A stretch of 63,312 bases of DNA, counting the filler, from Folioceros fuciformis (Eukaryota), in NCBI GenBank assembly GCA_049999805.1. It is 10 parts of 10 records of this genome, joined end to end, with 100 filler letters (N's around TTAATTAATTAA, not from the genome) between each part and the next. Parts side by side here need not be neighbours in the genome. Positions count along the whole stretch, not along the records: positions 16,240 to 25,929 come from JBNGIO010000905.1; 9 more parts are not named here. The stretch is one strand, 5' to 3'. Made by a program: the position numbers and the translations under genes. Shown here piece after piece: positions 13,238 to 60,655 of this stretch. Position 1 is the first letter of the stretch; each line of letters begins with the position of its first letter. A model generated the notes under the pieces. It did no database searches and was not told the origin of the DNA. It was given only the letters and a program-made list of their open reading frames with translations.

Positions 13238-14656
13238 ATGCCGGGTGCGGCCAGCCGGTCCTCCCCCGAATTCAGGCTCGGCTCGGGCCTGGCAGTTGGC
13301 GATGGCGGCGGGTTGTCCCCCTACGGCACTCGGGTGTATCCGAAAATCGCGTACCAGGTGGAGCAGGTGAAGGCGGTGGTGAGTGAAGCTTCTCCCTTGT
13401 TTGCGCGGGATCTCGTAAGAGAGGAGGCGAGGACGGTGGAGGAATCGGTACATGATGAGAATGGCGGGCTGCGGCGGGGAGCGGAGGGGGAGGGAGGTGA
13501 GCCGGGGCTGTTGGCGAAGGGAATGCACGTCGCGGAGAAGGTGAAAATGATCACATCCAAGTTCCGGAGCTTGTTGCTGACGACGGAGCCGCACAAGGCA
13601 GAGAGGCTGCAGGCTGTGAGTTGGCACAGGAGGAAGCTGTGGCTGGCCTTCGTCGGGAGTAACGATCAGGTCCTGGTGCAGGACTTCGAGGATCCTGTGT
13701 GTCGGGAGCCTGTCACGCTGGTGCACAAGGAGAGTCAGAATGGAGTGGAAGCCGTGGAGTGGCGTCCGAATGCCGGAGCAACGCTGTCTGTTGCTTGCAG
13801 TGGAGGGATTGTGATCTGGACGGCGTCTTATCCCGGAAACATAGCTCCGGTGCGGACTGGGAACCCGGCTTTCACCGGAACGCTGCCGAGTTCGTCTGGG
13901 GCGCGGTGGGTGGTCGTTGATTTCTTGAAGGGGAATTTGCGGACGCCGGTGACCTGCTTGTCGTGGAGTCCGTGCGGGAGGCTTCTGGCATCATCCTCGC
14001 TGCAGGATTCTTCTTTCACGGTGTGGGATGTGTCGTTAGGGAAAGGTACTCCACTCAGGCGGGGGCTCGGCGGGGTTTCGCTGCTAAAATGGGCTCCGAA
14101 TGGGGACTATTTGATGTCATCCAAGGCCAGTGGAGCATTTCATCTGTGGGAAACCTACAGCTGGACCTCCCAGCCGTGGACCACGGCTCAAGGGAGCCTT
14201 GTGAATGCTGCATGGAGCCCAGATGGACGAATTCTCCTGGCTGCCTTTGATCAGTCACCAACTCTAGCAGCCTTCCACTTTTCTGCCAGGCCCCCTTCAC
14301 TGGATGTGCATTGGCTGCCATTGGATTTGCCTGGCATTCACAGCATCACGGGAGGGTTTTGTAACATTGACAAGATTGTCTGGAGCAACACTGGACGGCT
14401 CTTGGCAGTATCCTGCACTGCCGGCGAGAGGCAAGCCTCTTCAGGGCTTGTGGCCATTTATGAAGTGCGGCAGTCACCAATTGTATCTGCGTCACTCTTG
14501 GGCTTTGTATCAGCTCCAGACGGCGGGGTGAGGCCCGTGGCATTTGCTTTCCATGAAAGCAAGAAGCCGAAACAGGGCATGCTACTCTCGGTTTGTTGGA
14601 GCAGCGGATTTTGTTGCATCTATTCCCTTGTCATCGGTAGCCAACCAGCGACTTAG
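13238..14656 (+). CDS. ALADIN: Aladin (AAAS) WD40 nucleoporin, single exon
   Basis: EWRPNAG-LSVAC-GGI-IW-ASYPGN, LSWSPCGR, FTVWDVS-GKGTPLRRGLGG, QGMLLSVCWSSGFCCIY match plant Aladin. Confidence 0.92.
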   Translation: MPGAASRSSPEFRLGSGLAVGDGGGLSPYGTRVYPKIAYQVEQVKAVVSEASPLFARDLVREEARTVEESVHDENGGLRRGAEGEGGEPGLLAKGMHVAEKVKMITSKFRSLLLTTEPHKAERLQAVSWHRRKLWLAFVGSNDQVLVQDFEDPVCREPVTLVHKESQNGVEAVEWRPNAGATLSVACSGGIVIWTASYPGNIAPVRTGNPAFTGTLPSSSGARWVVVDFLKGNLRTPVTCLSWSPCGRLLASSSLQDSSFTVWDVSLGKGTPLRRGLGGVSLLKWAPNGDYLMSSKASGAFHLWETYSWTSQPWTTAQGSLVNAAWSPDGRILLAAFDQSPTLAAFHFSARPPSLDVHWLPLDLPGIHSITGGFCNIDKIVWSNTGRLLAVSCTAGERQASSGLVAIYEVRQSPIVSASLLGFVSAPDGGVRPVAFAFHESKKPKQGMLLSVCWSSGFCCIYSLVIGSQPAT

Positions 14657-15340: not shown

Positions 15341-16139
15341 TTATGTACAACAGGTTCTCAGTTCACTGGTCTGCGAGTTCGCGACGCTGCTTGCTTTTTG
15401 CTCTAAGAGGTCACAGTAACCCCCACCGTTAACATGAATAACCTGGCCGGAGATGTAAGACGCATCCTGGGATGCGAGGAAAACGTAGGAGGTGGCCACC
15501 TCGTAAGGCTGCCCAGGTCGACCCATGGGAGTAGAGCCTCCGAACTTGCCCTTCTCTATCTTATCCGCAGGGAAGGAGGCGGGGATCAAAGGCGTCCAGA
15601 TAGGACCCGGTGCGACCGCATTCACCCGAATCCCCTTGGACACGAGCTGCTTAGACAAACCCTTGGTGAAGGCCAGAATAGCTCCCTTGGTGGCAGTGTA
15701 GTCCAGCAGAATAGGGTTGCCCTTATACGCCACCACGGACGTGGTATTGATGATGCTGCTCCCTTCCTGCATCCATTGCGTCCCAAGAACAAGTGAGTTG
15801 GTAAGAACGCTCTCGCTCCGTACGCACGCCATTTCTCCATTCCTCCCTTTCATCAACACTTGCTCACCTTCATGTGCTTCACAGCGTGGCTGGTGAGGAA
15901 GAACTGCGAGAAGATGTTGCTGCGGAATGTCCGCTCCACCTGATCCGGCGGAATCTCGTCTACGCTGGTGCGCACCAACTGCTCCGAGGCATTGTTCACC
16001 AGGATGTCGATGCGGCCGAACTGCTTCACCACCTCCTCCACCACGTGCCTGCATTGTTCCTCAAATCCCAAGTCCACCCCGATCGCGATCGCCTTGGCCT
16101 TGTTCTGCGTCACGTCACTCACGGCCTTGACGGTTTCGT
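15341..16139 (-). CDS. Short-chain dehydrogenase (glucose and ribitol dehydrogenase-like); 5' part lost in gap; intron 15767-15867
   Basis: GRIDILVNNA, SIINTTSV, YTATK catalytic motif, GIRVNAVAPGPIWTPLIP. Confidence 0.9.
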
Positions 16140-21011: not shown

Positions 21012-22742
<1,731 letters not shown>

Positions 22743-23015
22743 AAGGGCTGCCCGGATCCTCTTTCTTCCCATTCGCTAGTTACCCTTGGGTGGCTCCCCT
22801 CCTCCATCCCTGCATACAGGAATTTAACACTCCATTTTGTACTCTTCTCTTACACAATTTTTGAACTGGATTATCTTCAGGCAAATAATTCTTGCCGTTT
22901 ACACTTCGCGTATTTGTGGACGTAACTGTGTTCTCAGTCTCTGCCTCCGGCCTGAGGAGTCAGGCCTTGCCCGCATATCAGCTGGCGGCTGCTTCCCAGC
23001 CAGCCCTGCGTCACC

Positions 23016-24743
23016 ATGTTACGGTCTTGGCGCCTACCGCACTCCGCGAACTTCCCTGCACGCCTGCTCTGCACGTCTCGTCAAGTGAGGTCTCAGCTTT
23101 CACCAGATGAGAAGTCCGTTGTCGCACAGCCCTTGCGACCGGCACCATCCACCTCTTCCTTGCTGGGTTGGTACTTGCGGATGCTTCAAAACCATCCCAT
23201 TAGAACCAAGAGTGTGACGGCCTGCTCCATTTACACCTCCGCGGACCTCACTTGTCAGGTGTGCTTTGTTTATCGTTGGATTCACATCGACTGAGCTGGA
23301 GCAAGCTTGTGTTTTGTAACCTCGTTCAATCTGTCCATGCTGCACTAGGGGATCTGTGCGTCGCAGGAGTCTCGTGATGGGGGATCCCTCGTTTGGGACA
23401 TGCCCAGAACCCTGCGAATGGCGGCATTTGGGTTTTTCGTGTCGGGCCCAAGCCTTCACGTATGGTTTAATTTCCTAGCCAAGATGATACCGAAGCGTGA
23501 CATGTTCTCTGTTTTCAAGAAGATGGTACTGGGGCAAACTGTTTACGGGCCCACCTTCAGTGCCGTCTTTTTCTCTGCAAATGCTCTTGCCCAAGGTAGG
23601 GATTGCAATTTTTCTACCCTGCCTTTTCCGTGCGTGGTGTCTGGGTAAACACCACCACGTGATTGTGTGCAGGAGAGACAACGAGGGAGATTGCTGGAAG
23701 GCTGCGTCGGGACGTGATTCCCACCCTCAAGAACGGGCTCATGTACTGGCCGGTGTGCGATTTCCTGACTTACCGATACGTGCCGCTGCATCTCCAGGTA
23801 TTTTCTCCCCACCATTACAGTCGATGGGTGCTGTCTTGCATGTCCTGTGGCTCATCCTGTCATTTGAGTATGATACTGGAAACTGCTATGTTAATACTGC
23901 CTCTGGACATATACGTTACTGGTAGCAACGGAGAGCTTTCGTGCAACTGAGAACCAACCTTGAGGTGGCTGACAATTCTGGAGCTCGACGCGTTCAGTGT
24001 ATTAAAGTTTTGGGAGGAGGAAGTGGTGCCACATTAGGTGATTCCATAATTGCGTCTGTAAAAGATGCAACTCCTCGCGGGAAAGTGAAAAAGGGAGAGG
24101 TTGTGAATTGCGTGATAGTGCGTACATCCATGCAGAAGCAGCGTAATGATGGAAGTGAGATAAGATTTGACAATAATGCAGTAGTAATTGTAAACAAGCA
24201 GGGGGAACCTGTGGGGACTCGAATTTTCGGACCTGTTCCACATGAACTCCGAAGTCGGTCACTGGTGAAAATTTTGACAATGGCTGAGCATGTTGCTTGA
24301 CTGACGCTCAGGCCAGAGCCCACTGGTGAGTAGATAGGTGGAGTGACCAGGGGAGAACCTGTTTCTGTTTACTTGCAATATGCGATGTGGCCAGGGCTCG
24401 TTCATTATTGCCCTTATGTGCTTTGCTGTGAGTTTGTTGTCTGTGGTATCCTTCGTTCAGCTTGCACATCGGATTCGTGATGTGAAGGTGGTTTGTGCTG
24501 TATCTTGTGTTTTCTGTTGTGTCGAGACCGAGGACCTGGACTCACCTTGTCTTATGGTTTTTCTTTCGGTGGTGATTGGTTTCGGTGTGATGGGTAATGG
24601 ACGGGTTCGGTTGTGGCGTGTCCTGGCAGCCGTTGTTTAGCAACTCTGCTGCATTCTTCTGGACAGTGTTTTTGACATACAAGGCAAGTTCAGAGAAGGT
24701 AACCGACGACAGCAATCGGAGCTCCGAAGTAGATGTTACTTAG
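23016..24743 (+). CDS. Mpv17/PXMP2 (PMP22) family protein; exons ~23016-23258, ~23349-23595, 23673-23797, 24630-24743
   Basis: [79 protein letters not shown] junctions in frame. Confidence 0.9.
23926..24300 (+). CDS. RPL14: Mitochondrial ribosomal protein L14 (HUELLENLOS-like) exon lacking its own ATG, inside the last intron of the Mpv17 gene
   Basis: tag|[29 protein letters not shown]...[34 protein letters not shown]. Confidence 0.93.
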
Positions 24744-25464
24744 GAAGATCGTACCTCGGGGATGTTGTGGATCTTCAAATCCAGAAGTACTTGCGTCTTT
24801 GCAGGGTCAGTTCACGGATGCCTTGCTAGCCATTCTGTCCCTTCGTTTCTACTGTTTTCTTGGAATCTGTGTCGTTTTTGCAGTCACGATCAGGTGAACC
24901 TTCTTTGACCTTGTTTACAGGTAACAGGGCAAACCCGTAAGAACGAAACAGCTCTCACCACTGGTTGGCGAGTTTTCCACACTCTGAGTCTGTTCGGTGT
25001 ATGCTTGCGAGAGTGCGTAGGTTTTCCAGTGGTCCACTGAGAGTTTCAACTCATTGCAAGTTAATTCCGAGGTGTTATGACCAATCATGAATTAATATAA
25101 AACCTGAAACATGGATACTTCAACACTTTGAAGATCAGTTGTGCCCAAACAATGCTCCACACCACAAATGAGTACCAAAGGTGTTTTGCCGCTGGTAAAT
25201 CGCGGTGGTTAGGTGACTGCCCACTAGCACCTGGGCCGATTAAGCCATGGTCGGGGCTTACATCTGCTGAGAGAATAAATGATCGATATTTCCTGAGTTC
25301 AGAAACCATTAGTTGTGCTATCCAGTATCATTCAACTACACCGTGGATATAAAAACGAACTCAGGTCAGAGTCCATCCAGGAAATTGTTAGAGCGAAGAA
25401 TTAGAAGAGAGCTGCCGAACCGTTCAGTAAACATCAAGGTTAGAAATGTGCTACCTAAAGTGCT

Positions 25465-38582: not shown

Positions 38583-41007
38583 TCAGTATGGTCGATACTC
38601 TGGTGGCTGCACTTCTTCCACAGCTGTGCGAGATGGATCAGAAATGGAAGTCCAGCTTAGGGTTGGAGTCGAGTTCCAAGACGACGAGGCTGCAGGGGAG
38701 TGAGCAGGAGGAGCAACCTTGCCATTACAGCTCTCACAAGTTGCGTTCAACTCGATGGCTTCCTCAATCATCCGTAGAACTTCGCACATGTTTGGCCGAT
38801 TTTTACTGTACCGTTGGCAGCACAGGATTGCGCAGTGAATAATCTTTGTCACGGATTTGCGGCTGTAGGTGCCACGTAGTCTTGGGTCTGTGACGGCCTC
38901 ACACCCATGAGAAGGATAGAGGGAGTTGAACCAGGGAAGAACCTGCCGTGCGATCAATCGAAGTGGGGTCATGCTCAGAACGAGTAAGCTCGGAATGTGA
39001 CTTACAGGTTGGAGACAGAGAACGAATACAAGTACCTCCCATTCGTGCTCTGCCTTGGTGAGGTCGACTGCTCGTCGTCCCGTGACGAGCTCGAGTAAAA
39101 CAATGCCGAAGCTGTACACGTCACTCTTGTGAGTCAGCTGTCGGCTAACATGGTACAGTGGATCAACATAGCCTCTGGTGCCCTTTACCCCTGTTGTGAG
39201 ATGTAATTTGTCATCGGGAACCACTGTGGAGATGCCAAAATCTCCCACTTTTGCCCTGAGATCTGCGTCCAGGAGTATGTTGCTTGGCTTGAGATCCCGA
39301 TGGATGACACTGATCTTCGTTTCTGCCTGTTTAGGAATGAGGATGAGAGCAGCACATGTACGGCAGGGCCGCTGTTTGCATTCTAGGCCCTGTTTGAACA
39401 AACACAACAGCAAGGGCTACTAGGCTCACCCGTCTGGACATCCTGTTGTCTCGGACTCCCTTAACTGAAGCTTCAGATTTCTGCTTGAACGGGAAAACAC
39501 ATGTCAGACTCTAGTAGCCAGATTAAAGGTAATGAAGCTTGGAAACAAAACACTGGCCTCAGAAAAACATTACTCCACAGTGTAGATAAACCACTGCTCG
39601 AGCAGCGTCGTGGGCAATTCTCAATCTGTCTGCCCAGCTCAGCACAGTGACCTCAGAAACTGGGCCATACAAATGATCAGCCAGTGTCCCGTTCGGCATG
39701 TATTCATACACCAGCATCACCTTGTTGCAGGCACTGTCGGTATTGCAATAGCCCAGTAGCTTCACCAAACGCCTGCATTTGCAAGCCACGGGTCACCGAC
39801 CCGACATCCAACAGTTCAAGAAGGTCTCCAGCAAGAACATTTCGCCCTCACAACGGGAACTTATAAGCTGAACTCCAGATATTCCAGAAACGATCAATAC
39901 TTACCGGTGGTGAAGAGCAGACAGGATCTCTATCTCCTTCAGCATCTCCTTCATCCCACCCTCTTTAGTTGTCGGTATACCTCGCTTGACGGCTATTAGC
40001 TTCCCAGACTCCAGTGTCCCTTTGAAAACCTCCCCAAATCCTCCGGACCCAATTTTAGTGGTAAACTTGTTTGTTGCATGCTCCAAGTCTTTGTACGTAA
40101 ACACCTTCAATGGCCGATGCAAAGCACTCTTGCACGTGGGGCACTTGTGCCGACTCCCACTAGGCTGAGAGCAGCAGTTCAGATGAGAGACCAAGAATCT
40201 GGAACTACAAGAGCACTTTGGTCTGTGGAAGAAGAGAAACATGCTCAATACGGACATCACCATCAACGAGCCTCCACACAACCTCGCCCTCCTACGAAAC
40301 TTCGCCAAGACTTCTGTCCTCGATGCCACGTATGGAGATGCATCATTCAGCAAAGTAGACGTAAGTTGCCGCCGACCTGGAAGCGTTCCTAGTGAAAACG
40401 GTTTTGGCAAACCACCACCTTCAGATCTGCCTGTGACCTGAAGTTCTATGTCAATGGCAGCTGCTTCTGGACCGCGTGTTCTGTCCAGACTGTCTTTCGA
40501 ACTCTCTGTATGATAGGTTCTCCTTCCAGGATCATGGGTAAGCTTCCTCGAAAGGCTGCGTGATATCTGCCCTTGCCGTGCGGCCTGTTGCATGTGCGTT
40601 CTGTCTGCAAACCTCTCCTGCTGTCCTGTCCATGTGCTGCTACCTTTCAGCAAAAGCTGAGTTCCCCTTCCCCCTTGTCCACAGGCTCCAGGCGTGACTT
40701 CTCGATACCCCAAATGCCTCCTCCCCGAACAACCCTTCCACAAATCGGTGTCAGCTTCCTTCTTGAACAGAACAAAGTCAGGGTGCTCAGGGCCTGTCTG
40801 AGCTTCAAAACTCTCTGTAGTGACCTGCCAACCAGCCCCAGTCTGTTTTGAGTATGTGAGGAACCCACGTTCCCTGATAGCAGAAACAGACACACTCCTG
40901 TTCGATGCTACATGAGGGCAGACAGCGGACTTGCTCACCAAAGCACTCATGAGAGCAATATACAGAAGGACAGCCAGAACTATGATTCCCACGCTCCATC
41001 TTCGCAT
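38583..41007 (-). CDS. Receptor-like Ser/Thr kinase (RLK/Pelle), multi-exon
   Basis: N-terminal hydrophobic segment, second TM, FTYKDLEHATNKF..IGSGGFGEVFKG..IAVK, LVYEYMPNGTL, HRDLKPSNILLD..DFG, KGTRGYVDP, KSDVYSFG. Confidence 0.88.
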
Positions 41008-43644: not shown

Positions 43645-45131
43645 CTAGACTCTGCTCCTTAACTCCTTCCTCAAGATTTTGCCAGAAGCAGACTTCGGCA
43701 CAGCGTCGATGAAGAACACGTGGTGAATCTTTTTATAGAACACCACATCCTTGGCCACATACTCCTTAAGAGCCTGCTCTGTAACCTCAGAACCTTCTTT
43801 CCGCACAACAAACGCCACAGGAACTTCTCCAGCTGCTTCGTCTTTCTTTGGCACAACAGCGGCATCAGCCACATCTGGGTGCGCTAGCAGCAGGGCCTCC
43901 AACTCCGCAGGGGGGACCTGAAAGCCTTTGAACTTGATGATCTCCTTCACCCGATCCACGATGAAAATCTCCCCGTCCGAGTCGACCACACCAATGTCAC
44001 CTGTATGCAGCCAGCCGTGCTTGTCGATGGTGCTCGCAGTAGCCTCTGGATTGTTGAAGTATCCTTTCATAATCTGAGGCCCGCGGATACAGATCTCCCC
44101 AGCTTCGCCGACCGGCAAGCTCACTCCGGTTTCGGAATCCACGACCTTCAACTCCGCATTCCTCATCACCATTCCGACAGACCCCGACTTCATCTGCTTC
44201 GGCTCCTTCGAGAAGGCCAGACTCATTGCCAACACCGGCCCTGCCTCCGTCATACCATACCCTTGCCCGACAATAGCCTGAGGCAACTTTTGACGGAGCG
44301 CATCCTCCAGCTCCTTCCCGAGCGGCGCCGCACCGGACATCACCCTGGTGATGCTGCTCAGATCATACTTCTCCACAATAGGACTCTTACTGATAGCCAA
44401 CACAATAGGCGGAACCACAGGCGCCACTGTGATCTTAAACTTCTCCACCAACCTCAACAAGCTCTCAATCTCAAACTTTTGCATAATCAACAGTGCCGCC
44501 CCAGCTCGCAGACCGCACAGCATCACAGAATTCAAGGAGTAGATGTGAAACATGGGAAGCAAGCACAGCATCACATCGTCCGTGGTCAGATGAAGGTGGG
44601 GGCAGTCTCCATCGACCTGCTGCGCCACGCTCGAGATCAGGCTCTTGTGCGTCAACATCACACCTTTCGGAAGCCCGGTCGTGCCAGAACTGTACGGCAA
44701 ACAAACAACAGACTCCGGATCCACATCCACCGGGGTAAACTTGCATTCATCCGCCTCCAAGAGCAAAGCAGCGCTCTCACATCCTTCCGGGGGGGCATCA
44801 ATCGTCAAAACTTTAGCTCCCAACCCAGACACCTTTCCGGCCCAGGCGCTCTGAGTGACAATCACCTTAGCTCCCGCCGCCTTGATCTGGTTCGCCAGCT
44901 CTCCGGCCGTGTAGAACGGATTGGCTGTGGTCACGACAGCTCCGCGCAACGCAACCCCGAGGAAAATCAGCGCGAATTCGCAGGTGTTTGGCAGCAACAG
45001 GCAGACGATGTCACCCTTCCCGACTCCCAAGCCCACCAGCCCGGCGGCGACCCGCCTAGACACCACCTCCACCTCGCTGTAGGTATACGTCTTCCCCGTG
45101 GGCCCGTCGATGAGACACGGCTTATCCCCGT
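43645..45131 (-). CDS. 4CL: 4-coumarate:CoA ligase (5' end in gap; visible part intronless)
   Basis: [18 protein letters not shown] (Box I), GEICIRG (Box II), [29 protein letters not shown]. Confidence 0.96.
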
Positions 45132-45472
45132 NNNNNNNNNNNNNNNNNNNNNNNNNNNNNNNNNNNNNNNNNNNNTTAATTAATTAANNNNNNNNNNNNN
45201 NNNNNNNNNNNNNNNNNNNNNNNNNNNNNNNCTATACAATAAGGAACAGCCTTAATAAAAATAATATTAATCACCAAAGTCTTGATGACTTGATCAAGCT
45301 TAATAAAATGCAAGTAAGGCGCGACGCTCATCAATACTATAATGAACAAAAACAAGCAAATCTTGCTAAGGAACAAATATCCTTAGAGCGAGTCTCAAGA
45401 CATGAAAAAAAATAGAGCAGCAAGACGAAATGCACCCTACTCAGTATCCAAGGTTCGTAACTAGCCACTTTC

Positions 45473-48400
45473 CTATGTCATGTTAGGTGCATAAGTACGT
45501 AGGGCAACTTGTATATTGCATATTTTATGGTGTACCATTCTTTCTGCCAAACCATTAACCTCCAGGTGATTTCTTGAAGTTACCCTATGATCAATAAGGT
45601 ACTCATTTAAAAATTCATCAAATTCTGCCATAAATTCAGTGCCTTGATTTGTCAAAACTTCTACACAAGCCCCAAAAACACTCAACACATGATTAAGAAA
45701 TGCTTTCTTAATGTCATGAGTCTTCTTCTCTCTCAAAGGCACCAAAAGTTTCCACTTAGAAAAATGTTCTATCATCACCAACACATATTTAAACCCTCTA
45801 CGCGTCACTAGTAACTCTCCAGCTAAATTCAAACTCCACCTATAAAACATCCCCCTAATAGGAAGCGGATGAAGCTCAGAAGTTGCCACCCATCATCACC
45901 CTCTCTAACATATTCTTATCTTCCCAGACATCTATTGACACCGAAGGAACTCCCAACTCCACCAAATTCACCAAGTATGCACTCGGAGTCCATCTGGACA
46001 CCACTAGATTACAGTCAACCCCAACATTCTTATCAAAATCTTGCCTGGCAACTGTTGAATCCTCTGAACTTCCTAATGGATTCCTTGGCAACACATCTGC
46101 ATTTGCGTGTTTCACTCCCGCCCTATGCTCAATAGAAAAATTATACTCCTACAAAATAAGTGCCCACCTTGCTAACTTTCCTGTCAACTTTTCACTCTTC
46201 ATCAACCACTTCAAAGGCTGATGATCCGCCACCAACTCAAATTGAGCCCCATACAAATAAGGCATGAAATGCGATACTGCCCATACCGCCACCAAACATT
46301 CCCCATAATATGAGGAATAATTGCTCTGTGCAGAATTGTTACTCATGCTTGCATATGCTACCACATGCTCCACCCCACTCTCATCATCCTGCACCAGCAT
46401 TGCTCCCAGACCAAGTTTGCTCCAATCTATATATAACTTAAACTTTCTATCAAAATTGGGTCTTGTCAGTAAAGGCTTGCTCATCAAAATGTCCTTTAGC
46501 TCCTTAAATGCTCTCTGTTGATCTTCTCCCCAAACCCACACTACATCTTTCTTTAATAACATTGTCATCGGTTTTACCACCATACTGTGGTTTGCCACAA
46601 AATTGCGATAATAATTTACCAATTCTAAAAAGGAGCGCAAAGTTCCCACTTCTGAAGGCGACATCATTTTTGCTATCGCTTCAACCTTAACATCAGACGG
46701 TGCCGTACCCCTAGGCACTATAAAATGTCCCAAATATGCTATCTTAGAGGATCCAAACCTGCACTTTTGTGGATGACATGTCAAACCAACCTCCTTCAGT
46801 CTATCCAACACTCTCCTAACATGCTCCTTATGTTCTTCCACACAGTTACTAAAAATTATCACATCATCTATGTAACACCTAGTGAAAGGCAAACCCCGCA
46901 ACGTTTGATCCATCGCTCTCTGAAAAGCAATAGGAGCATTCTTCAGCCCAAATGGGATAACCACCCATTCCCACTAACATCTATTGCCCCAAAAAGCAAT
47001 CTTCTTCTTATCTTCCTCTTCAATTTCAATTTGATTAAAACCACCCCTCAATTCCAATGTTGAAAATATCTTACATTCACCAATTGCAGCAAAAATTTCC
47101 TCTGGAGTTGGCATTGCATATATGTCCATAGGCGTCACTTCATTAAGCAGCCTATAGTCACCACACATTCTCTTTTCTGTCCAATTGCCATGCACATCCT
47201 TCTTTGGTGGAAGCACCATAGCTGCTGCATACTCTCGCTCCAAAGACCTTATAAATCCAGCTTCAAGTAGCTCTTGACACTTCTTGTCCACAATTTCATT
47301 CTCCAGTTTACTCAAACGGTATGGCCTTCTAAAAACTGGTTCAGAAGTTTTAAGCCGAATCTTAAACTTAAACATCTTGTGCCTACCCAATTCCTTATTG
47401 GAAAAAGCAAATACTTGCCTGCTACTTTCCAAAATCCTTACAAAATCCTCCCTAGCCTCCAAAGTTATCTCATCAGAAATACGCCACTAAAAATCCATAC
47501 ATTCCTGTTTCTCATGGACATTAACCTCATAGCTTGAGCTAGCCACATTCCCAGCTTTTCTTTCTACATCTACAACCTTTGCCCCATATCTCATTTGCTT
47601 GCTCTGCTTACCCTCATCACCTAAAACCTCATCATGCTCTCTCATTCTTTTAGTCTCCTCTCAAGCGTCTAAACCTTCATATCTTCTTACTGTACCCAGA
47701 CTACGTCTCTCCAACCTTGTGCTTAAAATAACTTTCCACTTTCTCTTCCACTCTTGATAAACTTTTATAGACATCATAAGCCACCTAATTGTATTCAAAT
47801 CCATAACTTGTCCGAGTTTTTTATTCCTCTGCTCAAATGTTATGCCCCCTCTTCGTATCAAATATCATCCTAGGTCCTTCCCCTTTAAATGCATTGGCGT
47901 CCTCAAAACTTACAAATGTCGGTAACGCCCTCCTGAGCTCCCCCTTTTTATTTACACAATAAAAAGGTTGTCTATCATCTAAAGTCACATGCTTACTCAC
48001 TCGCCCCTCATCTAATATCTGATCAACTATTAAATCATCATCCCTACGCCACTGACTCATAAGCATCTGCAACAAATGCCTAGGCATCATGTTATTCCAA
48101 AAACAGCGATGCCTATGAGCCCTAGATCCAAACTTCACTACATCCAACTTTATAGGTTCACCCAAATAATACTTGATCTCCTCAAAATCTCGCCTCAACA
48201 CCATTCTTCTATTCATTTACGAATCCACATTCTCAATCAAAAAACCACATTCTTTCCTCTGATGCTTTTGCACCAAATTCAAAATCCTTATTAGCTCATA
48301 AAATAACACCGACCTATAATCCAATAAGCCTTTTTCCTTGCCTGCCATTGAATGCCCTTGACATTCCCAGCCAGCTATTATCAGATCAATTTCTTCCTCC

Positions 48401-53451: not shown

Positions 53452-53624
53452 CCGCGCGCCAACCACTAGCTGTGAACGCACAGCTTCTCGCCACTTCTAA
53501 CAACGTCCGAGGGGTGTGACTATGAACTCGTCGACAGTCCAACATCGTGCAACTAACCAATTAACCAACTAAATATCATTGCACCACGCTGAGGTCATGT
53601 TGGGCGTTGCGATGGGCGTAGGCT

Positions 53625-56600
53625 ATGGACACTATTCTCTGCGCAACGTGCCCAGGGGAGCTACGATTGGGGCTCAGGCTTGACCAGGCATCCTCTGCGG
53701 TGCGCTGGACCCCATCGGTGCAAAATCTGCACCCGACTAATTTACAGAAAAGTGGGGAAGTTTATCATGGTGGGGGGCTGGCAACGCGCTCTCCCCTCCC
53801 GTATACCGCAGTCACGGCTGATAACGTGGGCAGATTGTGCGAGCAGGGGAAGCTCATTGAGGCTGTTGAGGGTTTGGGAGTTTTGGTGCCCACCAAGTGT
53901 GGTGTTTTCCCATCTATCTTGTATAAAGTGCTTCGGAAATGTGTGGGAAGGAAGGACATCGTTCTTGGGCGTCGTCTCCATGCTCTTGCAGTGAAATGTG
54001 GATATGAGCCGGATACGTTCTTGTGCAACCACTTTCTGCGCATGTATGCCGGTCATGCCCTGTTGGAGGAAGCGATGGAAGTTTTCAGCGTTGTAGCGGA
54101 GCCGGATGCCTTTACCTGGTCTGCCATAATATCCGCCCATGTCAAGCATGGACAGGATAAGCTGGCCATAGAGCTATATCATCGGATGTGTATGTCAGGT
54201 GTGAAGCCTGATGGGCATGTGTTTGTGGCAGCCCTTCAGGCTTGTGCGAGGGGAGCAGACCTGGAAGCTGGGCAGCAAGTGCATGCTGATGCCTTGGCCT
54301 GTGGGGTTGGGACAGATTTGTTTGTTTGTAATGGGTTGGTAGACATGTATGCCAAGTGTGGGAGTTTGGAGGACGCGCAAAGAGTGTTTGATGGACTTGG
54401 ACATAAAGATATAGTGACTTGGACAGTGCTGATTTCGGGATATTCGCACGGGGGCATGGGTCGGGAAGCACTGGATCTTTACAGTGCAATGGAAGAAGGA
54501 GGCATTGCTGTGCCTGATTCTGTGACGTTTGTGTGTCTGCTGCAGGCATGTGCTTGTGTGGGTGTGCCCGCTCTGGAGAAGGGGAAGCAGCTTCATGCAC
54601 AGATGGGAGAACGGGGAATTAAGGTGGATGTTGTTGTCGGTTGCAGCCTCGTTAACATGTACGTGAAGTGTGGAAGCCTGGAGGATGCTCGGGGTGTGTT
54701 TGATGGACTTGGTCAAAAGAATGTAGTGACATGGACTGCTTTGATAGCAGGATATTCTGAGCAGGGCATGGGGGGGGAAGCCCTGTCTCTTCACCGTACT
54801 ATGGAACAACAAAGTATGGCGGTATCCAATCCTGTGACATTTGTTTGTCTTTTGCGGGCCTGTGCTAGTGTGGGTGCACCGGCTTTACATAGGGGGAAGC
54901 AGCTTCATGCACAGATTACACAAGGAGGGTTTCAGGCTGATGCCCTTGTAGGTGGCGGCCTGGTTAACATGTACGCGAAGTGCGGCAGCCTGGAAGATGC
55001 TCAAAGTCTGTTTGACAGGCTTCCTCAGAAAGATGTGGTGACATGGACTGCTTTAATAGGAGGTTATTCTCAGGAGGGCAAGGGTCAAGAAGCACTTCGT
55101 CTGTACAGTGCAATGCAAGAAGAAAGCAGGGAGGCATTGAACTCTGCGACAATTGTGTGCCTCCTACAGGCATGTGCAAGTCTGGGTATTCCCGCCTTGG
55201 AGAAAGGGAAGCACCTTCATGCAAGGATTGAAGAACGAGGACTTCTTGCCGATGTGAGGGTTGGCAACAGTTTAGTAAACATGTATGTCAAGTGTGGCAG
55301 CTTGGAAGCTGCGCAAACCGTGTTTGACAGACTTGATCACAGAGATGAGGTCTCATGGATTGCCATGATGGCAGGTTATTCACAGCAGGGCAAAGGACAC
55401 GAGGCCCTCCATCTGTACAGCACTATGCGGGAAGAAGGCGTTGTTGCGCCAACTTCTGGGACATATGTGTGCGCCCTTCAGGCTTGTGCAACAGTTGGCA
55501 ACCCGGCGTTAGAGATGGGAAAGCAACTTCATTCAGAGATTGGAGACCGGGCGGATGAGGTTGTATGTTGCAGCCTAATCAATATGTATGCTAAGTGTGG
55601 CAGTTTGGAAGCCGCCCAAGCGGTGTTTGACCGGCTTGATCAAAAAAGTATCATCACATGGACCGCTTTGATGGCAGGATATTCCCAGCAGGGCAGGGGC
55701 CGGGAAGCCCTTTCTCTCTACAGGTCTATGCAACTGGAAGGCATTGTTACACCTGATGCTGTGACGTTTGTGTGCCTCCTGCACGCTTGTGCAAGTGTAG
55801 GTACCCTTGCTTTGGAGTGTGGGCAACAACTCCATGCACAGATTGGAGAACGAGGGCTTCAGAATGATGTGCATGTAGCCAACAACTTGGTGAACATGTA
55901 TGCCAAGTGTGGCAGCTTACAGAATGCTCGTTTTGTGTTTGAAAGGCTTGGCGAAAAAAATGTGGTGTCGTGGAATGCCGTGATAGCGGGCTATTCCCAG
56001 CAGAGCATGGGCCATGAAGCACTTCGTCTTTACAATGCCATGGAACAAGAAGGAATCACTGCACCCGACACAGTGACGTTTGTGTGCCTCCTTCAGGCTT
56101 GTGCAGGTGTCGGCATCTCTGCTTTGGAGGCAGGGAAGCATCTTCATTCACAGATTCAAGAGCAAGGTCTCCAAAATGACGGGTTCTTAGCCAACAGTTT
56201 GGTGAACATGTATGCAAAATGTGGCAGCCTTGGTGACGCTCGTGCTGTGTTTGACAGGCTTGTCGACAAAAGTGTGATCACATGGAATGCCATGATAGCA
56301 GGATACACACAACAGGGCATGGGACAGGAAGCCCTTCACCTTTACATGTTAATGCAAGAAGACGACATGGTTGCAGCTGATTGTGTGACGTTTGTTTGCC
56401 TCCTGCAGGCATGTGCAGACGTGGGAGCCTTGCATGTAGGAAGGCAGCTCCATTCCCACATTGAAGAACATGGGCTTCAATTCGATTCTGTCGTTGCCAT
56501 CAGTTTGATGAACATGTACGCAAAGTCTGGGAGCATGGTTGATGCAGAACAGGTGTTTCAAGGATTGCCCAAACAAGACCCTGCTGCTTGGAATGCACTG

Positions 56601-57407
56601 ATTTCTGGCTACTCCCGTCAAGGAGACAGTGAAGTGGTATTCAACCAGCTTCACAGAATGAAAGAGACCGGCATACAGCCAGCTGGCAACACGTTTCTTA
56701 GTTTACTCATTGTATGTAGTCATGCAGGCCTGGTGACAAAGGGAAGAGAGTGCTTCGCGTCTATGAGCAGAGACTATGGGGTGAGTCCCACATCTGAGCA
56801 CTACAAATGCCTGGTGGATCTCCTGAGTCGTGCCGGCCATTTGGATGAGGCTCTAGCTGTGGTGATGACTATGCCTGTACTCCCTGATGCTGCAGTTTGG
56901 CACACTCTCTTGAGTGCTTGTCGAAAGTGGAGCAACGTGGAGGTGGGGCGCCGTGCTTTTGATGAGGCAGTGAACCTAGATAGGAAAGATGCTGCAGCTT
57001 ATGTATTGATGTCGAGCATATACATCAGTGCCCAGATGTGGGAGCAGGCACGGGAGATGCAGGCGAGGAGGATAGGAAATGGAGCATGGAAGCAGCCAGG
57101 TCAGAGTTGTTGGACAGACTTAGAAGGTATCGTGCACAGCTTTTCGGTCGGGGACAAGAACCATGCTGAGCGTGAAGGTCAGCACCATAGGCACACTCTT
57201 TTCCAAATGAAGAAGGAAGATGCTGTGTCAGACGAGGACTCTTGGTGCGTGTTCGATGTTCGAAACGAAGATCGTTTCTATCCTTGTCGCTGTGCTCTCA
57301 AACATGTCTCCTACCCAAGTAGCCCACCAACACCAGCATTGTACAAAGCCGACGGAAGTTTGCTTAGTACATGGAGGGCATGTTTAATGTGCCCTCTCAG
57401 GCTCTAA
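53625..57407 (+). CDS. PLS-class PPR protein with E/E+ domains and a degenerate DYW-like tail (organellar RNA-editing factor family), single exon
   Basis: Repeated P-L-S triplets (LVNMYAKCGSLEDA..VFD, WTALIAGYSQQG, TFVCLLQACA); HYKCLVDLLSRAG; WKQPGQSCWTD..GIVHSFSVGD. Confidence 0.95.
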   Translation: MDTILCATCPGELRLGLRLDQASSAVRWTPSVQNLHPTNLQKSGEVYHGGGLATRSPLPYTAVTADNVGRLCEQGKLIEAVEGLGVLVPTKCGVFPSILYKVLRKCVGRKDIVLGRRLHALAVKCGYEPDTFLCNHFLRMYAGHALLEEAMEVFSVVAEPDAFTWSAIISAHVKHGQDKLAIELYHRMCMSGVKPDGHVFVAALQACARGADLEAGQQVHADALACGVGTDLFVCNGLVDMYAKCGSLEDAQRVFDGLGHKDIVTWTVLISGYSHGGMGREALDLYSAMEEGGIAVPDSVTFVCLLQACACVGVPALEKGKQLHAQMGERGIKVDVVVGCSLVNMYVKCGSLEDARGVFDGLGQKNVVTWTALIAGYSEQGMGGEALSLHRTMEQQSMAVSNPVTFVCLLRACASVGAPALHRGKQLHAQITQGGFQADALVGGGLVNMYAKCGSLEDAQSLFDRLPQKDVVTWTALIGGYSQEGKGQEALRLYSAMQEESREALNSATIVCLLQACASLGIPALEKGKHLHARIEERGLLADVRVGNSLVNMYVKCGSLEAAQTVFDRLDHRDEVSWIAMMAGYSQQGKGHEALHLYSTMREEGVVAPTSGTYVCALQACATVGNPALEMGKQLHSEIGDRADEVVCCSLINMYAKCGSLEAAQAVFDRLDQKSIITWTALMAGYSQQGRGREALSLYRSMQLEGIVTPDAVTFVCLLHACASVGTLALECGQQLHAQIGERGLQNDVHVANNLVNMYAKCGSLQNARFVFERLGEKNVVSWNAVIAGYSQQSMGHEALRLYNAMEQEGITAPDTVTFVCLLQACAGVGISALEAGKHLHSQIQEQGLQNDGFLANSLVNMYAKCGSLGDARAVFDRLVDKSVITWNAMIAGYTQQGMGQEALHLYMLMQEDDMVAADCVTFVCLLQACADVGALHVGRQLHSHIEEHGLQFDSVVAISLMNMYAKSGSMVDAEQVFQGLPKQDPAAWNALISGYSRQGDSEVVFNQLHRMKETGIQPAGNTFLSLLIVCSHAGLVTKGRECFASMSRDYGVSPTSEHYKCLVDLLSRAGHLDEALAVVMTMPVLPDAAVWHTLLSACRKWSNVEVGRRAFDEAVNLDRKDAAAYVLMSSIYISAQMWEQAREMQARRIGNGAWKQPGQSCWTDLEGIVHSFSVGDKNHAEREGQHHRHTLFQMKKEDAVSDEDSWCVFDVRNEDRFYPCRCALKHVSYPSSPPTPALYKADGSLLSTWRACLMCPLRL

Positions 57408-60186: not shown

Positions 60187-60555
60187 TTAAGCGCAGGTCC
60201 AGACGGAGCAGAAGGTGACGGGCTGGTTCTTCCACAAGAGGACGGCGCAGTCCATGTCGAGGAGCAGATCCCACTGGGAATCGTATTTCCTGAGAACAGC
60301 CCTGGAATTATCCAGGACGTCCTCGCTGAGAGCGGCGGGGGCGAAGGCAGCCCGGCGCATCCTGGACACCCAGCAGGCGTGGGGCTCGTTGCGCTCGATT
60401 CTAGTGAGCCCGTCGCAGGCGACGGCGTTGAGCATCATCATCCCGGCCTCGTACTCGACGATCTGCCGCTCCTCGCTGGCCTTGCCCTTGTACGACGCCG
60501 CGTTGGAGTCGAAGAAGCGCCAGAAAAACGACGCGACATGCGGAAACCTGGCGGC
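60187..60555 (-). CDS. NSP1: GRAS transcription factor C-terminus, NSP1-like (5' part in gap)
   Basis: FFWRFFDSNAASYKGKASEERQIVEYEAG..RNEPHACWVSRMRRAAF..SEDVLDNSRAVLRKYDSQW..LLWKNQPVTFCSVW parallels the NSP1 WRFLDS..EER..RALLRKYD..WK.QPVSFCSLW signature. Confidence 0.85.
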   Translation of the reverse strand, partial: AARFPHVASFFWRFFDSNAASYKGKASEERQIVEYEAGMMMLNAVACDGLTRIERNEPHACWVSRMRRAAFAPAALSEDVLDNSRAVLRKYDSQWDLLLDMDCAVLLWKNQPVTFCSVWTCA

Positions 60556-60655
60556 NNNNNNNNNNNNNNNNNNNNNNNNNNNNNNNNNNNNNNNNNNNNT
60601 TAATTAATTAANNNNNNNNNNNNNNNNNNNNNNNNNNNNNNNNNNNNNNNNNNNN

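Follow-up and report, generated by a model that had tools for sequence, protein, structure and literature searches.

Functional transfer of a gene from an organelle to the nucleus requires that the gene gain a promoter and a targeting signal. To our knowledge, very few cases still reveal how both were gained, and sdh2-rps14 is the standard example. In poplar and mangrove, plastid rpl32 became fused with Cu-Zn SOD, and a later duplication separated the two. In grasses (rice, maize, wheat), rps14, which encodes a ribosomal protein and came from the mitochondrion, lies on the same strand within a spliceosomal intron of the nuclear gene sdh2 (SDHB), and alternative splicing yields either the host mRNA or a chimeric mRNA joining a host exon to the ribosomal protein; the SDH2-RPS14 fusion precursor is thought to be processed (excerpt of PMC1543663). 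MPP cuts composite precursors internally, and such precursors (yeast Arg5,6 and Atp25, rice RPS14) carry two unrelated mature parts with an MPP-type motif at the junction, a site being predicted at the rice RPS14 junction (excerpt of PMC8734313). A different connection is offered by human MPV17L2, an inner-membrane protein of the Mpv17 family that is tied functionally to the mitoribosomal large subunit. Ribosome assembly requires it, and the authors of that study connect it with C7orf30, a reported binder of MRPL14 (excerpt of PMC4117752). It is a separate gene with no L14 fusion and, according to the same excerpt, stems from a metazoan-specific duplication.

Here we describe a locus of Folioceros fuciformis that fits the sdh2-rps14 kind: a startless frame for ribosomal protein L14 lies on the same strand in an intron of its host, an Mpv17-like gene, and is expressed as a chimeric in-frame mRNA. 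The parallel with rps14 in the grass sdh2 intron, first drawn in a sequence-only reading, is borne out by spliced contigs and by what the excerpt of PMC1543663 reports. The window (the whole stretch of DNA analysed; 63,312 nucleotides, filler included, from assembly GCA_049999805.1) contained the following features:

23016-23258, + strand: coding part of exon 1 (E1); 81 codons, open reading frame with ATG; common to both mRNAs
23259-23348, + strand: intron 1; 90 nt, GT..AG, phase 0
23349-23595, + strand: exon 2 (E2); 247 nt, central Mpv17 part; contigs in all four runs
23596-23672, + strand: intron 2; 77 nt, GT..AG, phase 1; joint 23595 to 23673 in all four runs
23673-23797, + strand: exon 3 (E3); 125 nt, ends in phase 0; donor CAG/GTATTT serves both isoforms
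23798-24629, + strand: last coding intron of the Mpv17 gene, harbouring the L14 frame
23798-23925, + strand: proximal intron of the L14 isoform; 128 nt, GT..AG; terminal TAG in frame with L14
23926-24300, + strand: coding exon of uL14m; 124 codons plus TGA, entered in phase 0
24301-24629, + strand: 3' UTR of the L14 mRNA, equal to distal Mpv17 intron 3 (L14 contigs)
24630-24743, + strand: coding part of exon 4 (E4); 37 codons plus stop, predicted last transmembrane segment; translated by the Mpv17 isoform only
24805-24919, + strand: intron in the 3' UTR; 115 nt, GT..AG; joint 24804 to 24920 in X1 only

On profile and full-length sequence similarity, the host gene belongs to the Mpv17/PMP22 family. 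E3 matched the Pfam family Mpv17_PMP22 (PF04117; E 3.6e-11, 43.4 bits against a cut-off of 27), and the spliced protein of 242 residues shared 57-59% identity over ~180 residues with Mpv17/PXMP2-4 proteins of Sphagnum, Ginkgo and Selaginella, of which the Sphagnum and Selaginella relatives bear the names PXMP2/4 family protein or Mpv17. E1 matched the Mesotaenium protein P0015 (BLASTP, E 8e-12), the spliced protein mapped back onto E2 (tblastn), and E4 aligned with the C-termini of orthologues. The start of E1 encodes a presequence-like N-terminal extension with six Arg and the first acidic residue at position 31, after which the Mpv17 domain begins. Hydropathy was weak: Kyte-Doolittle peaks lay near residues 69-85, 105-125, 141-160 and 205-221, all below 1.3, with a 17-residue maximum of 1.22.

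Transcript data were Logan contigs of four runs (X1, X2, X6 and X10) from four related organisms; all 22 runs found were classed as RNA by guess and were represented by Logan contigs. One run was 100% identical to the window, and pieces of the others were at least 90% alike, some of them less than 95%. A contig identical to the window covered 22954-23256 and was then joined to E2, and the joint 23258 to 23349 was present in spliced contigs of X1 and X6; X2 and X10 also spanned intron 1, the start of E2 being a diverged 20-letter stretch there. The corrected start of E2 was 23349. At 22954, the X1 contig had a loose 5' end of 24 letters that was absent from the window at up to 2 mismatches. The length of E2 differed by 6 nt in X2 and X10, which keeps the frame. 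Together, E1, E2 and E3 comprised 615 nt, or 205 codons, with phase 0 on both sides of the junction that follows.

From donor 23797, contigs of all four runs continued to two acceptors, 23926 (L14) and 24630 (Mpv17), both through GT..AG introns. We conclude that one nuclear gene produces two mRNAs through the choice between two 3' splice sites for this donor. Expression of L14 by alternative splicing of the host transcript, with the L14 core at 23926-24300 lying in sense orientation within the Mpv17 intron at 23798-24629 and the terminal Mpv17 exon resuming at 24630, had been proposed from the sequence; Pfam and the spliced contigs upheld the arrangement and its coordinates, and the search for junctions at 23926 identified 23797 as their donor in all four runs. 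The intron at 23798-24629 had been taken for the last of the gene; it is the last coding intron but not the last intron, since a further one (24805-24919, seen in X1 only) lies in the 3' UTR. E1-E3 formed one contig per run, which ended exactly at 23797 in all four, as a branch point predicts, and contigs spanning 23797 to 23926 had a depth of the same order as those spanning the Mpv17 junction. Ahead of L14, the Logan contigs included only 26-27 nt of E3, and we infer that L14 molecules share E1 and E2 as well. As the L14 acceptor is joined to the donor of E3, the two products have 205 codons in common, which cover most of the membrane protein. The proposal of a shared N-terminus thus held by way of 23797, the third of three listed donors (23084, 23258 and 23797, all in phase 0 as stated), but not as a short targeting exon.

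Downstream of the L14 stop codon, contigs of X2, X6 and X10 extended to 24656, that is, into exon 4, and the X1 contig stopped at 24431. X1 was without cover over 24471-24624; an earlier poly(A) site is possible in the organism of the window itself, but a gap in cover is no evidence of one. All five small listed indels fell in 24301-24629, none of them a multiple of 3, and no indel was listed within E1-E3 or L14 in the contigs of the four runs. The X2 contig omitted 59 nt at 24306-24364.

The L14 frame was full-length and of bacterial type (Pfam Ribosomal_L14, PF00238; E 2.8e-45, 153.6 bits against a cut-off of 23.6), with the profile match covering positions 2-121 of 122, and was the single L14 in the window. 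Its best solved match was HLP of the Arabidopsis mitoribosome (6xyw_Ak, E 3.1e-43), with uL14m 9evs_1L at 3.5e-43; chloroplast uL14c scored weaker (28jw_K, 5.4e-33; spinach 4v61_BM, 1.3e-28). Certain bacterial L14 proteins scored nearly as high as uL14m (7e-43), so that structure-match scores alone do not separate mitochondrial from bacterial. Identity to streptophyte uL14m was 62-84% among the matches listed, bryophyte sequences being closest, and the alignment to HLP started at the QRRTF junction, at HLP residue 43. By these similarities, the exon is closer to plant mitochondrial uL14m (HLL/HLP type) than to chloroplast uL14c. Among the four organisms, eight of the nine listed L14 substitutions were synonymous. 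That L14 lacks a start of its own had been recognized from the sequence and was substantiated here: codon 23923-23925, directly 5' of L14, is an in-frame TAG that also supplies the acceptor AG, and the first Met within the exon is exon residue 69 (fusion residue 274), leaving no usable ATG. Unspliced RNA therefore cannot yield L14.

At the junction, the window encodes QRRAF before VQLRT. Arg at -3 together with Phe or Tyr at -1 before the core was found in 46 of 117 L14 proteins with an N-terminal extension, and all 46 carriers were of plant or streptophyte-alga type. The junction Phe occupies the position of the bacterial Met1, where prokaryote-type run-on proteins have Met; R-x-F/Y precedes (I/V)Q(L/M), a bacterial-type N-terminus, and is conserved in plant uL14m. 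Arabidopsis HLL/HLP and other streptophyte uL14m thus resemble the window's L14 in the mature part and in the R-x-F junction; they carry an ordinary extension of ~40-180 residues with no Mpv17 similarity, whereas the L14 of the window has neither extension nor start of its own.

We consider it probable that the locus makes a composite precursor from which uL14m is released in the matrix, and possible that it is the nuclear landing site of rpl14. Use of the distal acceptor 24630 adds exon 4, and the resulting mRNA encodes the complete 242-residue Mpv17/PMP22-family membrane protein. With the proximal acceptor 23926, the mRNA encodes an in-frame Mpv17(1-205)::L14 fusion of 329 residues, in the order N-terminal extension, first three predicted membrane segments, following loop and uL14m. 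The host N-terminus would direct mitochondrial import, and the splice point would fall in the loop that precedes the final membrane segment, on the matrix side under the Nout/Cout topology proposed for Sym1/MPV17 (excerpt of PMC6166979); with the loop on that side, L14 would reach the matrix. The host N-terminal extension resembles a cleavable presequence, which could give the protein the opposite topology to that taken from its yeast and human relatives. By analogy with SDH2-RPS14 and yeast Arg5,6, cleavage at the conserved R-x-F would then release L14 with a bacterial-type N-terminus, so that the fusion would be imported first and cut internally afterwards. The precursors of Arg5,6, Atp25 and RPS14 have functional N-terminal parts, whereas here a truncated membrane protein would precede a putative cleavage site and probably serve as carrier only. 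We know of no tested precedent for a three-segment membrane carrier of a ribosomal protein.

Other fates of the L14 exon were weighed against this composite precursor. The donor favoured from the sequence alone, 23084, would splice a short targeting exon (23016-23084, 23 residues) to 23926 and produce a conventional presequence-L14 protein, in keeping with the ordinary, Mpv17-free N-terminal extensions of other streptophyte uL14m. CAA/GTGAGG at 23084 is a plausible phase-0 donor, but the choice did not survive the contig data: 23926 was joined to 23797 in all four runs, none of them had a listed joint linking 23926 to 23084 or 23258 (contigs can lose rare variants), and the E1 contigs of X1 and X6 continued straight past 23084, making this route highly improbable. 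Exceedingly improbable, in our view, is that the E3-L14 junction reflects noisy splicing or a by-product targeted for decay, with functional uL14m made from another locus. The long 3' UTR of the L14 mRNA, including exon 4 in three organisms, would suit such a by-product; against it, the junction recurred in all four organisms at a depth comparable to that of the Mpv17 junction, the frame was kept, substitutions in L14 were nearly all synonymous while indels that are not multiples of 3 gathered in the UTR, and no second L14 was present in the window.

If the E3-L14 mRNA is real, translation of L14 could still begin at an internal AUG or on a shorter transcript, and the membrane part would then never be attached. 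Met187 in exon 3 is a candidate internal start that would place 19 host residues ahead of L14, further in-frame Met codons occur at fusion residues 99-187, the short stretch of E3 is all that contigs prove upstream of L14, and many mitoribosomal proteins use unconventional targeting signals (excerpt of PMC8724765). However, there was no sign of an internal transcription start in the contigs, E1-E3 being a single contig per run up to the branch point, and the depths of the two branches added up to roughly its contig-mean depth in three runs (X1, X2 and X6), though not in the fourth (X10). That agreement is no more than a weak hint, since the depth of contigs is not a sound gauge for parts of a gene. 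We regard an internal start as unlikely. Alternatively, the fusion might stay uncleaved, in which case the Mpv17 segments would tether uL14m, and with it the large subunit or the assembly of that subunit, to the inner membrane. Human MPV17L2, an inner-membrane Mpv17 relative, co-sediments with the mitoribosomal large subunit, but it arose by a metazoan duplication according to the excerpt of PMC4117752 and so is not an orthologue of the window gene. Moreover, R-x-F is kept in species whose uL14m has an ordinary extension only, which points to removal of everything upstream, and permanent tethering is very unlikely. A functional link between the Mpv17 family and the mitoribosome in plants is speculation.

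Beyond the window, the gene model ME000391S06770 (P0015) of Mesotaenium endlicherianum, a single automated model, joins an orthologous Mpv17 part to L14: its Mpv17 part is 51% identical to that of the window and ends at the same HLQ boundary, followed by L14. Some 95 low-complexity linker residues separate the two parts and may be a mis-modelled intron. P0015 was the only protein with both PF04117 and PF00238 among the 120 matches listed. No second two-domain protein appeared in the best 150 phmmer matches of P0015 against 1.84 billion representatives, a search in which fusions may hide inside clusters or go unannotated as isoforms, nor was a further one present among 258 proteins checked. In the Sphagnum Mpv17 cluster, long Logan members of 319-469 residues were rejected as fusions, being open reading frames extended into the 5' UTR. 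Locus tags of Sphagnum place the two genes at 13G and 03G, and Mpv17 and L14 appear to occupy separate loci there.

All-against-all BLASTP of 101 L14 extensions and 27 Mpv17 extensions yielded nothing below 0.001 except P0015 against itself; a borderline row paired P0015 with P0163 (E exactly 0.001; 70 residues aligned at 24% identity). Exon 1 and the Sphagnum uL14m extension both start MLRS, but homology between them was rejected for want of a BLASTP alignment. The P0015 linker was likewise rejected as a homologue of the other L14 extensions, its best score being 23.9 bits against a shuffle maximum of 24.3. A profile of five L14 extensions (Sphagnum, Calypogeia, Marchantia, Riccia and Closterium), scored against the 7999 longer-protein candidates with most shared words, gave seven matches, all of them L14, and no Mpv17 protein sharing the exon. 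Exon 2 as a query against longer proteins gave three matches, all angiosperm Mpv17, and was uninformative.

According to the excerpts of PMC3814193 and PMC1894977, the mtDNA of bryophytes, Zygnematales and Coleochaetales lacks rpl14, and that of Chara, Chlorokybus and Mesostigma has it. Given these losses and the algal gene model, it is plausible, on indirect grounds, that the locus is a trace of rpl14 transfer from the organelle to the nucleus, and this may be where mitochondrial rpl14 first entered the nuclear genome. A more specific version, in which the landing site dates from the common ancestor of Zygnematophyceae and land plants and was retained in certain lineages over hundreds of millions of years because its products cooperate, the fusion perhaps being a membrane-tethered uL14m, seems distinctly unlikely; it adds that an Mpv17-like protein would act in assembly or anchoring of the large subunit, like human MPV17L2, and that splicing would set the ratio of the products. 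Relative to grass sdh2-rps14, in which one exon of a soluble subunit is shared, the host here is of predicted polytopic inner-membrane type and shares three exons (205 codons). The L14 arrangement occurs outside the grasses and may far predate the ~80 My given for grass sdh2-rps14, a possibility raised by the matching gene model in an alga. Like L14 here, rpl32 is an organelle ribosomal protein gene that came to use the targeting exon of a host by means of alternative splicing; in some lineages the two genes have since separated, and the case could model the nested state of this locus against the separate loci of Sphagnum; unlike the mitochondrial L14, the rpl32-SOD case is plastid and recent.

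Our literature search found no paper describing an Mpv17/L14 gene pair. The locus provides a second mitochondrial example beside sdh2-rps14, in a non-seed plant, in which the borrowed part is not a simple presequence but most of a membrane protein, and in which a startless ribosomal protein exon depends wholly on the splicing of its host gene. The locus further hints, in a testable way, that proteins of the Mpv17 family are linked to the mitoribosomal large subunit outside animals. With a zygnematophyte gene model of the same composition, and with mitochondrial rpl14 reported missing from precisely the clade to which Zygnematales and land plants belong, what the locus shows may be the condition that immediately followed transfer; if so, Sphagnum, with its apparently separate loci, would show the later, separated state.

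Positions 23016-24743 (+) held the coding region of a member of the Mpv17/PMP22 family in four exons (E1-E4), and an L14 frame lay on the same strand within the intron between E3 and E4. The spliced host protein (242 residues) was 57-59% identical over ~180 residues to proteins of Sphagnum, Selaginella and Ginkgo, of which the Sphagnum and Selaginella matches are named PXMP2/4 family protein or Mpv17 by their sources.

Coding exons of the Mpv17/PMP22 host gene and the nested L14 exon
23016-23258 (+), E1, Mpv17/PMP22 coding exon
23349-23595 (+), E2, Mpv17/PMP22 coding exon
23673-23797 (+), E3, Mpv17/PMP22 coding exon, by itself matching Pfam Mpv17_PMP22 (E 3.6e-11)
23926-24300 (+), L14 exon, stop-to-stop frame within the E3-E4 intron, Pfam Ribosomal_L14 (E 2.8e-45, profile positions 2-121 of 122)
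24630-24743 (+), E4, Mpv17/PMP22 coding exon

The sequence-only reading had described an L14 core nested in an Mpv17 intron without a usable ATG, and this was borne out by the Pfam match and by the surrounding codons. The codon immediately 5' of the L14 frame was an in-frame TAG, which also provided the AG of the splice acceptor, and the first Met came only at exon residue 69. The single ATG in frame with L14 in the upstream intron (23824) was cut off by this TAG, and unspliced RNA cannot yield L14 protein. No second copy of L14 or Mpv17 was found in the window.

Sequencing runs in contig form numbered 22, none of them recorded as RNA; the sampled words were covered to 63% by one and to at most 10% by each of the others. 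Contigs of four runs, from four related organisms (X1, X2, X6 and X10), were placed on 22700-25000, with pieces of X2, X6 and X10 at a likeness of at least 90%, some below 95%. The X1 contigs were identical to the window but intron-free, and therefore come from spliced RNA. After shifting to the canonical GT..AG cut, the joint 23258 to 23349 was present in X1 and X6; X2 and X10 spanned it too, E2 there opening with divergent sequence (23349-23375) and being six bases shorter (two codons, in frame). All four runs contained the joints 23595 to 23673, 23797 to 24630 (E4) and 23797 to 23926 (L14). In every run the E1-E3 contig terminated exactly at 23797, and L14 and E4 contigs each reached back 25-27 letters into the end of E3, as expected where a k-mer assembly branches. 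Phase-0 donors at 23084, 23258 and 23797 had been named for the L14 acceptor, with 23084 favoured; neither 23084 to 23926 nor 23258 to 23926 was listed in the contigs of the four runs, and the donor joined to 23926 in all of them was 23797, the third that had been named. The L14 contigs of X2, X6 and X10 ran on across 24301-24629 into E4, to 24656; this L14 mRNA is the product of the proximal 3' splice site, with E4 carried untranslated. That of X1 ended at 24431.

Several further observations concerned the transcribed region. An extra X2 contig at 23798-23925 comprised the end of E3 followed by intron-like sequence, with alignment resuming from 23903, which points to an RNA that retains the proximal intron in a shorter, diverged version. 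In X1 only, a 115-nt GT..AG intron (24805-24919) lay in the 3' UTR, 62 nt past the Mpv17 stop and ~500 nt past the L14 stop; any L14 mRNA long enough to include it would have a long UTR and, within it, a downstream junction. The upstream GAPDH gene ended at 22742 and its X1 contig reached 22903, leaving a gap of ~50 nt to the Mpv17/L14 contig, which began at 22954. The latter carried 24 loose 5' letters that had no match in the window with up to 2 mismatches allowed; a distant 5' exon or an artefact of assembly may explain them.

E1, E2 and E3 together made 615 nt, or 205 codons, and since both donor 23797 and acceptor 23926 were in phase 0, the proximal splice is predicted to join Mpv17 residues 1-205 to L14 in a single open frame (329 codons). 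One donor and two acceptors gave two mature RNAs, one encoding an in-frame composite, with L14 contigs covering 25-27 letters of E3. Among the single-letter differences between organisms (40 of 136 listed), nine fell in the L14 exon, eight of them third-position and synonymous, and all three in E3 were synonymous. The five small indels listed (lengths 4, 2, 2, 1 and 1) were all 3' of the L14 stop, and the X2 contig skipped 59 nt in the region behind it. Purifying selection acts on the L14 frame in each of the four organisms, and past its stop the sequence behaves as non-coding.

The best solved relatives of the L14 were Arabidopsis mitoribosomal HLP (6xyw_Ak, E 3.1e-43) and uL14m of 9evs (3.5e-43); chloroplast uL14c scored 5.4e-33 and 1.3e-28, and certain bacterial L14 scored almost equal to the mitochondrial relatives. 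The HLP alignment began at HLP residue 43, its QRRTF junction. In the window the junction read HLQ (end of E3), QRRAF, VQLRT, with the aromatic residue of QRRAF at the position of the bacterial initiator Met. Of 218 stored L14 relatives, 117 had 24 or more residues ahead of the core, and 46 of these 117 had R at -3 and F/Y at -1, immediately followed by (I/V)Q(L/M). All 46 were plant and streptophyte-alga proteins; prokaryote-type run-on proteins had Met at the aromatic position. Arg at -3 is the pattern of mitochondrial processing peptidase (MPP) sites, and the Arg three residues before the aromatic in the window fits this pattern as a candidate site.

We infer the steps of import, topology and release as follows. 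The N-terminal extension of the host protein (6 Arg and 7 Ser within 45 residues, first acidic residue at position 31) would, from its composition, direct import. By hydropathy, the splice point sat in the loop preceding the last hydrophobic segment, the membrane segments being weakly hydrophobic. Yeast Sym1 and human MPV17 have a proposed topology of four spans, Nout/Cout (PMC6166979), in which this loop would face the matrix; L14 would then be delivered to the matrix because it replaces the fourth span. With its presequence-like extension, the host protein could have the opposite orientation to the one assumed. A cut at the R-x-F motif would free L14 with a bacterial-type N-terminus; MPP is described as cleaving composite precursors internally, with a predicted site at the rice SDH2-RPS14 junction (PMC8734313).

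The L14 exon was unusual in composition. Its GC3 (23926-24297) was 0.36, versus 0.63 for the Mpv17 coding sequence and 0.72 for the final exon of the adjacent GAPDH gene. The window has 102 ORFs with a length of 110 codons or more; a GC3 scan of 59 of them gave 0.50-0.78 for nine Pfam-supported host-gene ORFs and 0.34-0.46 for four Pfam-supported retroelement ORFs, which the L14 exon resembled. The total GC of the L14 exon (0.46) equalled that of the intron on either side (0.45-0.51). AU-richness is important for plant intron recognition, and on this basis selection possibly keeps the exon intron-like in composition and so skippable within the 832-nt intron.

Other features of the window
3-2115, R2R3-type Myb (Pfam)
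13202-14653, Aladin-like WD40 propeller (Pfam)
15344-16060, short-chain dehydrogenase (Pfam)
38586-39416, protein kinase fragment (Pfam)
43648-45183, AMP-binding enzyme, single 512-codon ORF (Pfam)
45476-46973 (-), integrase, RT and RNase H of Ty3-like retroelement remains (45476-47486)
53622-57404, PPR protein with E motif, single 1261-codon open frame (PPR_2 E 1e-122, E_motif E 2e-10)
60190-60603, GRAS-domain ORF, directly adjoining the Ty1/copia-like remains
60603-63311 (-), Ty1/copia-like retroelement remains (RVT_2, Pol_BBD)

Searched against longer proteins, the L14 exon gave 277 matches at E 0.001 or better. Among the 120 listed, streptophyte uL14m were 62-84% identical to the window L14 (Sphagnum closest at 81-84%, liverworts 75-77%) and carried extensions of ~100-180 residues. 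Only one of these 120 combined PF04117 with PF00238, a Mesotaenium endlicherianum gene model of 503 residues (ME000391S06770, P0015). Its Mpv17 part was 51% identical to the window's, aligned with E1 (E 8e-12) and ended at the same HLQ boundary, lacking the last membrane segment; a ~95-residue low-complexity linker and then L14 followed. Its top named Mpv17 matches (Selaginella, Ginkgo, Sphagnum) were also those of the window's protein, and the host genes are on this basis apparently orthologues. Nine of 41 stored Mpv17-type proteins aligned with the window's protein up to exactly residue 205 and no further; eight went on into unrelated tails and one terminated there. Most of these tails started with V or G, as expected from read-through of a GT donor, and the phase-0 intron after HLQ is widely conserved.

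Three results count against a universal nested arrangement: in phmmer with P0015 as query, the best 150 matches among 1.84 billion representatives included no second two-domain protein; a profile built from five L14 extensions, of bryophytes and Closterium, matched L14 only (7/7), giving no link to Mpv17; and Sphagnum magellanicum locus tags (Mpv17 orthologue 13G, uL14m 03G) suggest, by their names, different chromosomes. Mitochondrial rpl14 is reported as missing from bryophytes, Zygnematales and Coleochaetales and present in Chara, Chlorokybus and Mesostigma (PMC3814193, PMC1894977). A single transfer of rpl14 into the Mpv17 intron, predating the divergence of land plants from Zygnematophyceae, with the genes later separated in some lineages, would fit P0015, the Sphagnum separation and these losses; as its basis is a single automated gene model from an alga, we consider it about evenly balanced between true and false.

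Ribosome assembly requires human MPV17L2, a relative of Mpv17 that co-sediments with the mitoribosomal large subunit; cooperation of MPV17L2 with C7orf30, reported to bind MRPL14, is the authors' inference (PMC4117752). As the MPV17L2 clade arose within animals (PMC4117752), this tie to the mitoribosome is a lead and not evidence, and its meeting with an Mpv17-L14 gene here may be coincidence. Full-text literature searches (Mpv17 with L14 or rpl14; HUELLENLOS with L14) found no description of the Mpv17-L14 gene pair. The parallel drawn with rps14 in the sdh2 intron held, in that the joints from 23797 to 23926 and to 24630 in all four runs make this the same type of arrangement. The logic proposed here is that of the grass sdh2-rps14 gene (PMC1543663). 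The type of arrangement is already known; what is new is a different host and a longer shared part, and the Mpv17-L14 arrangement is possibly much older than sdh2-rps14.
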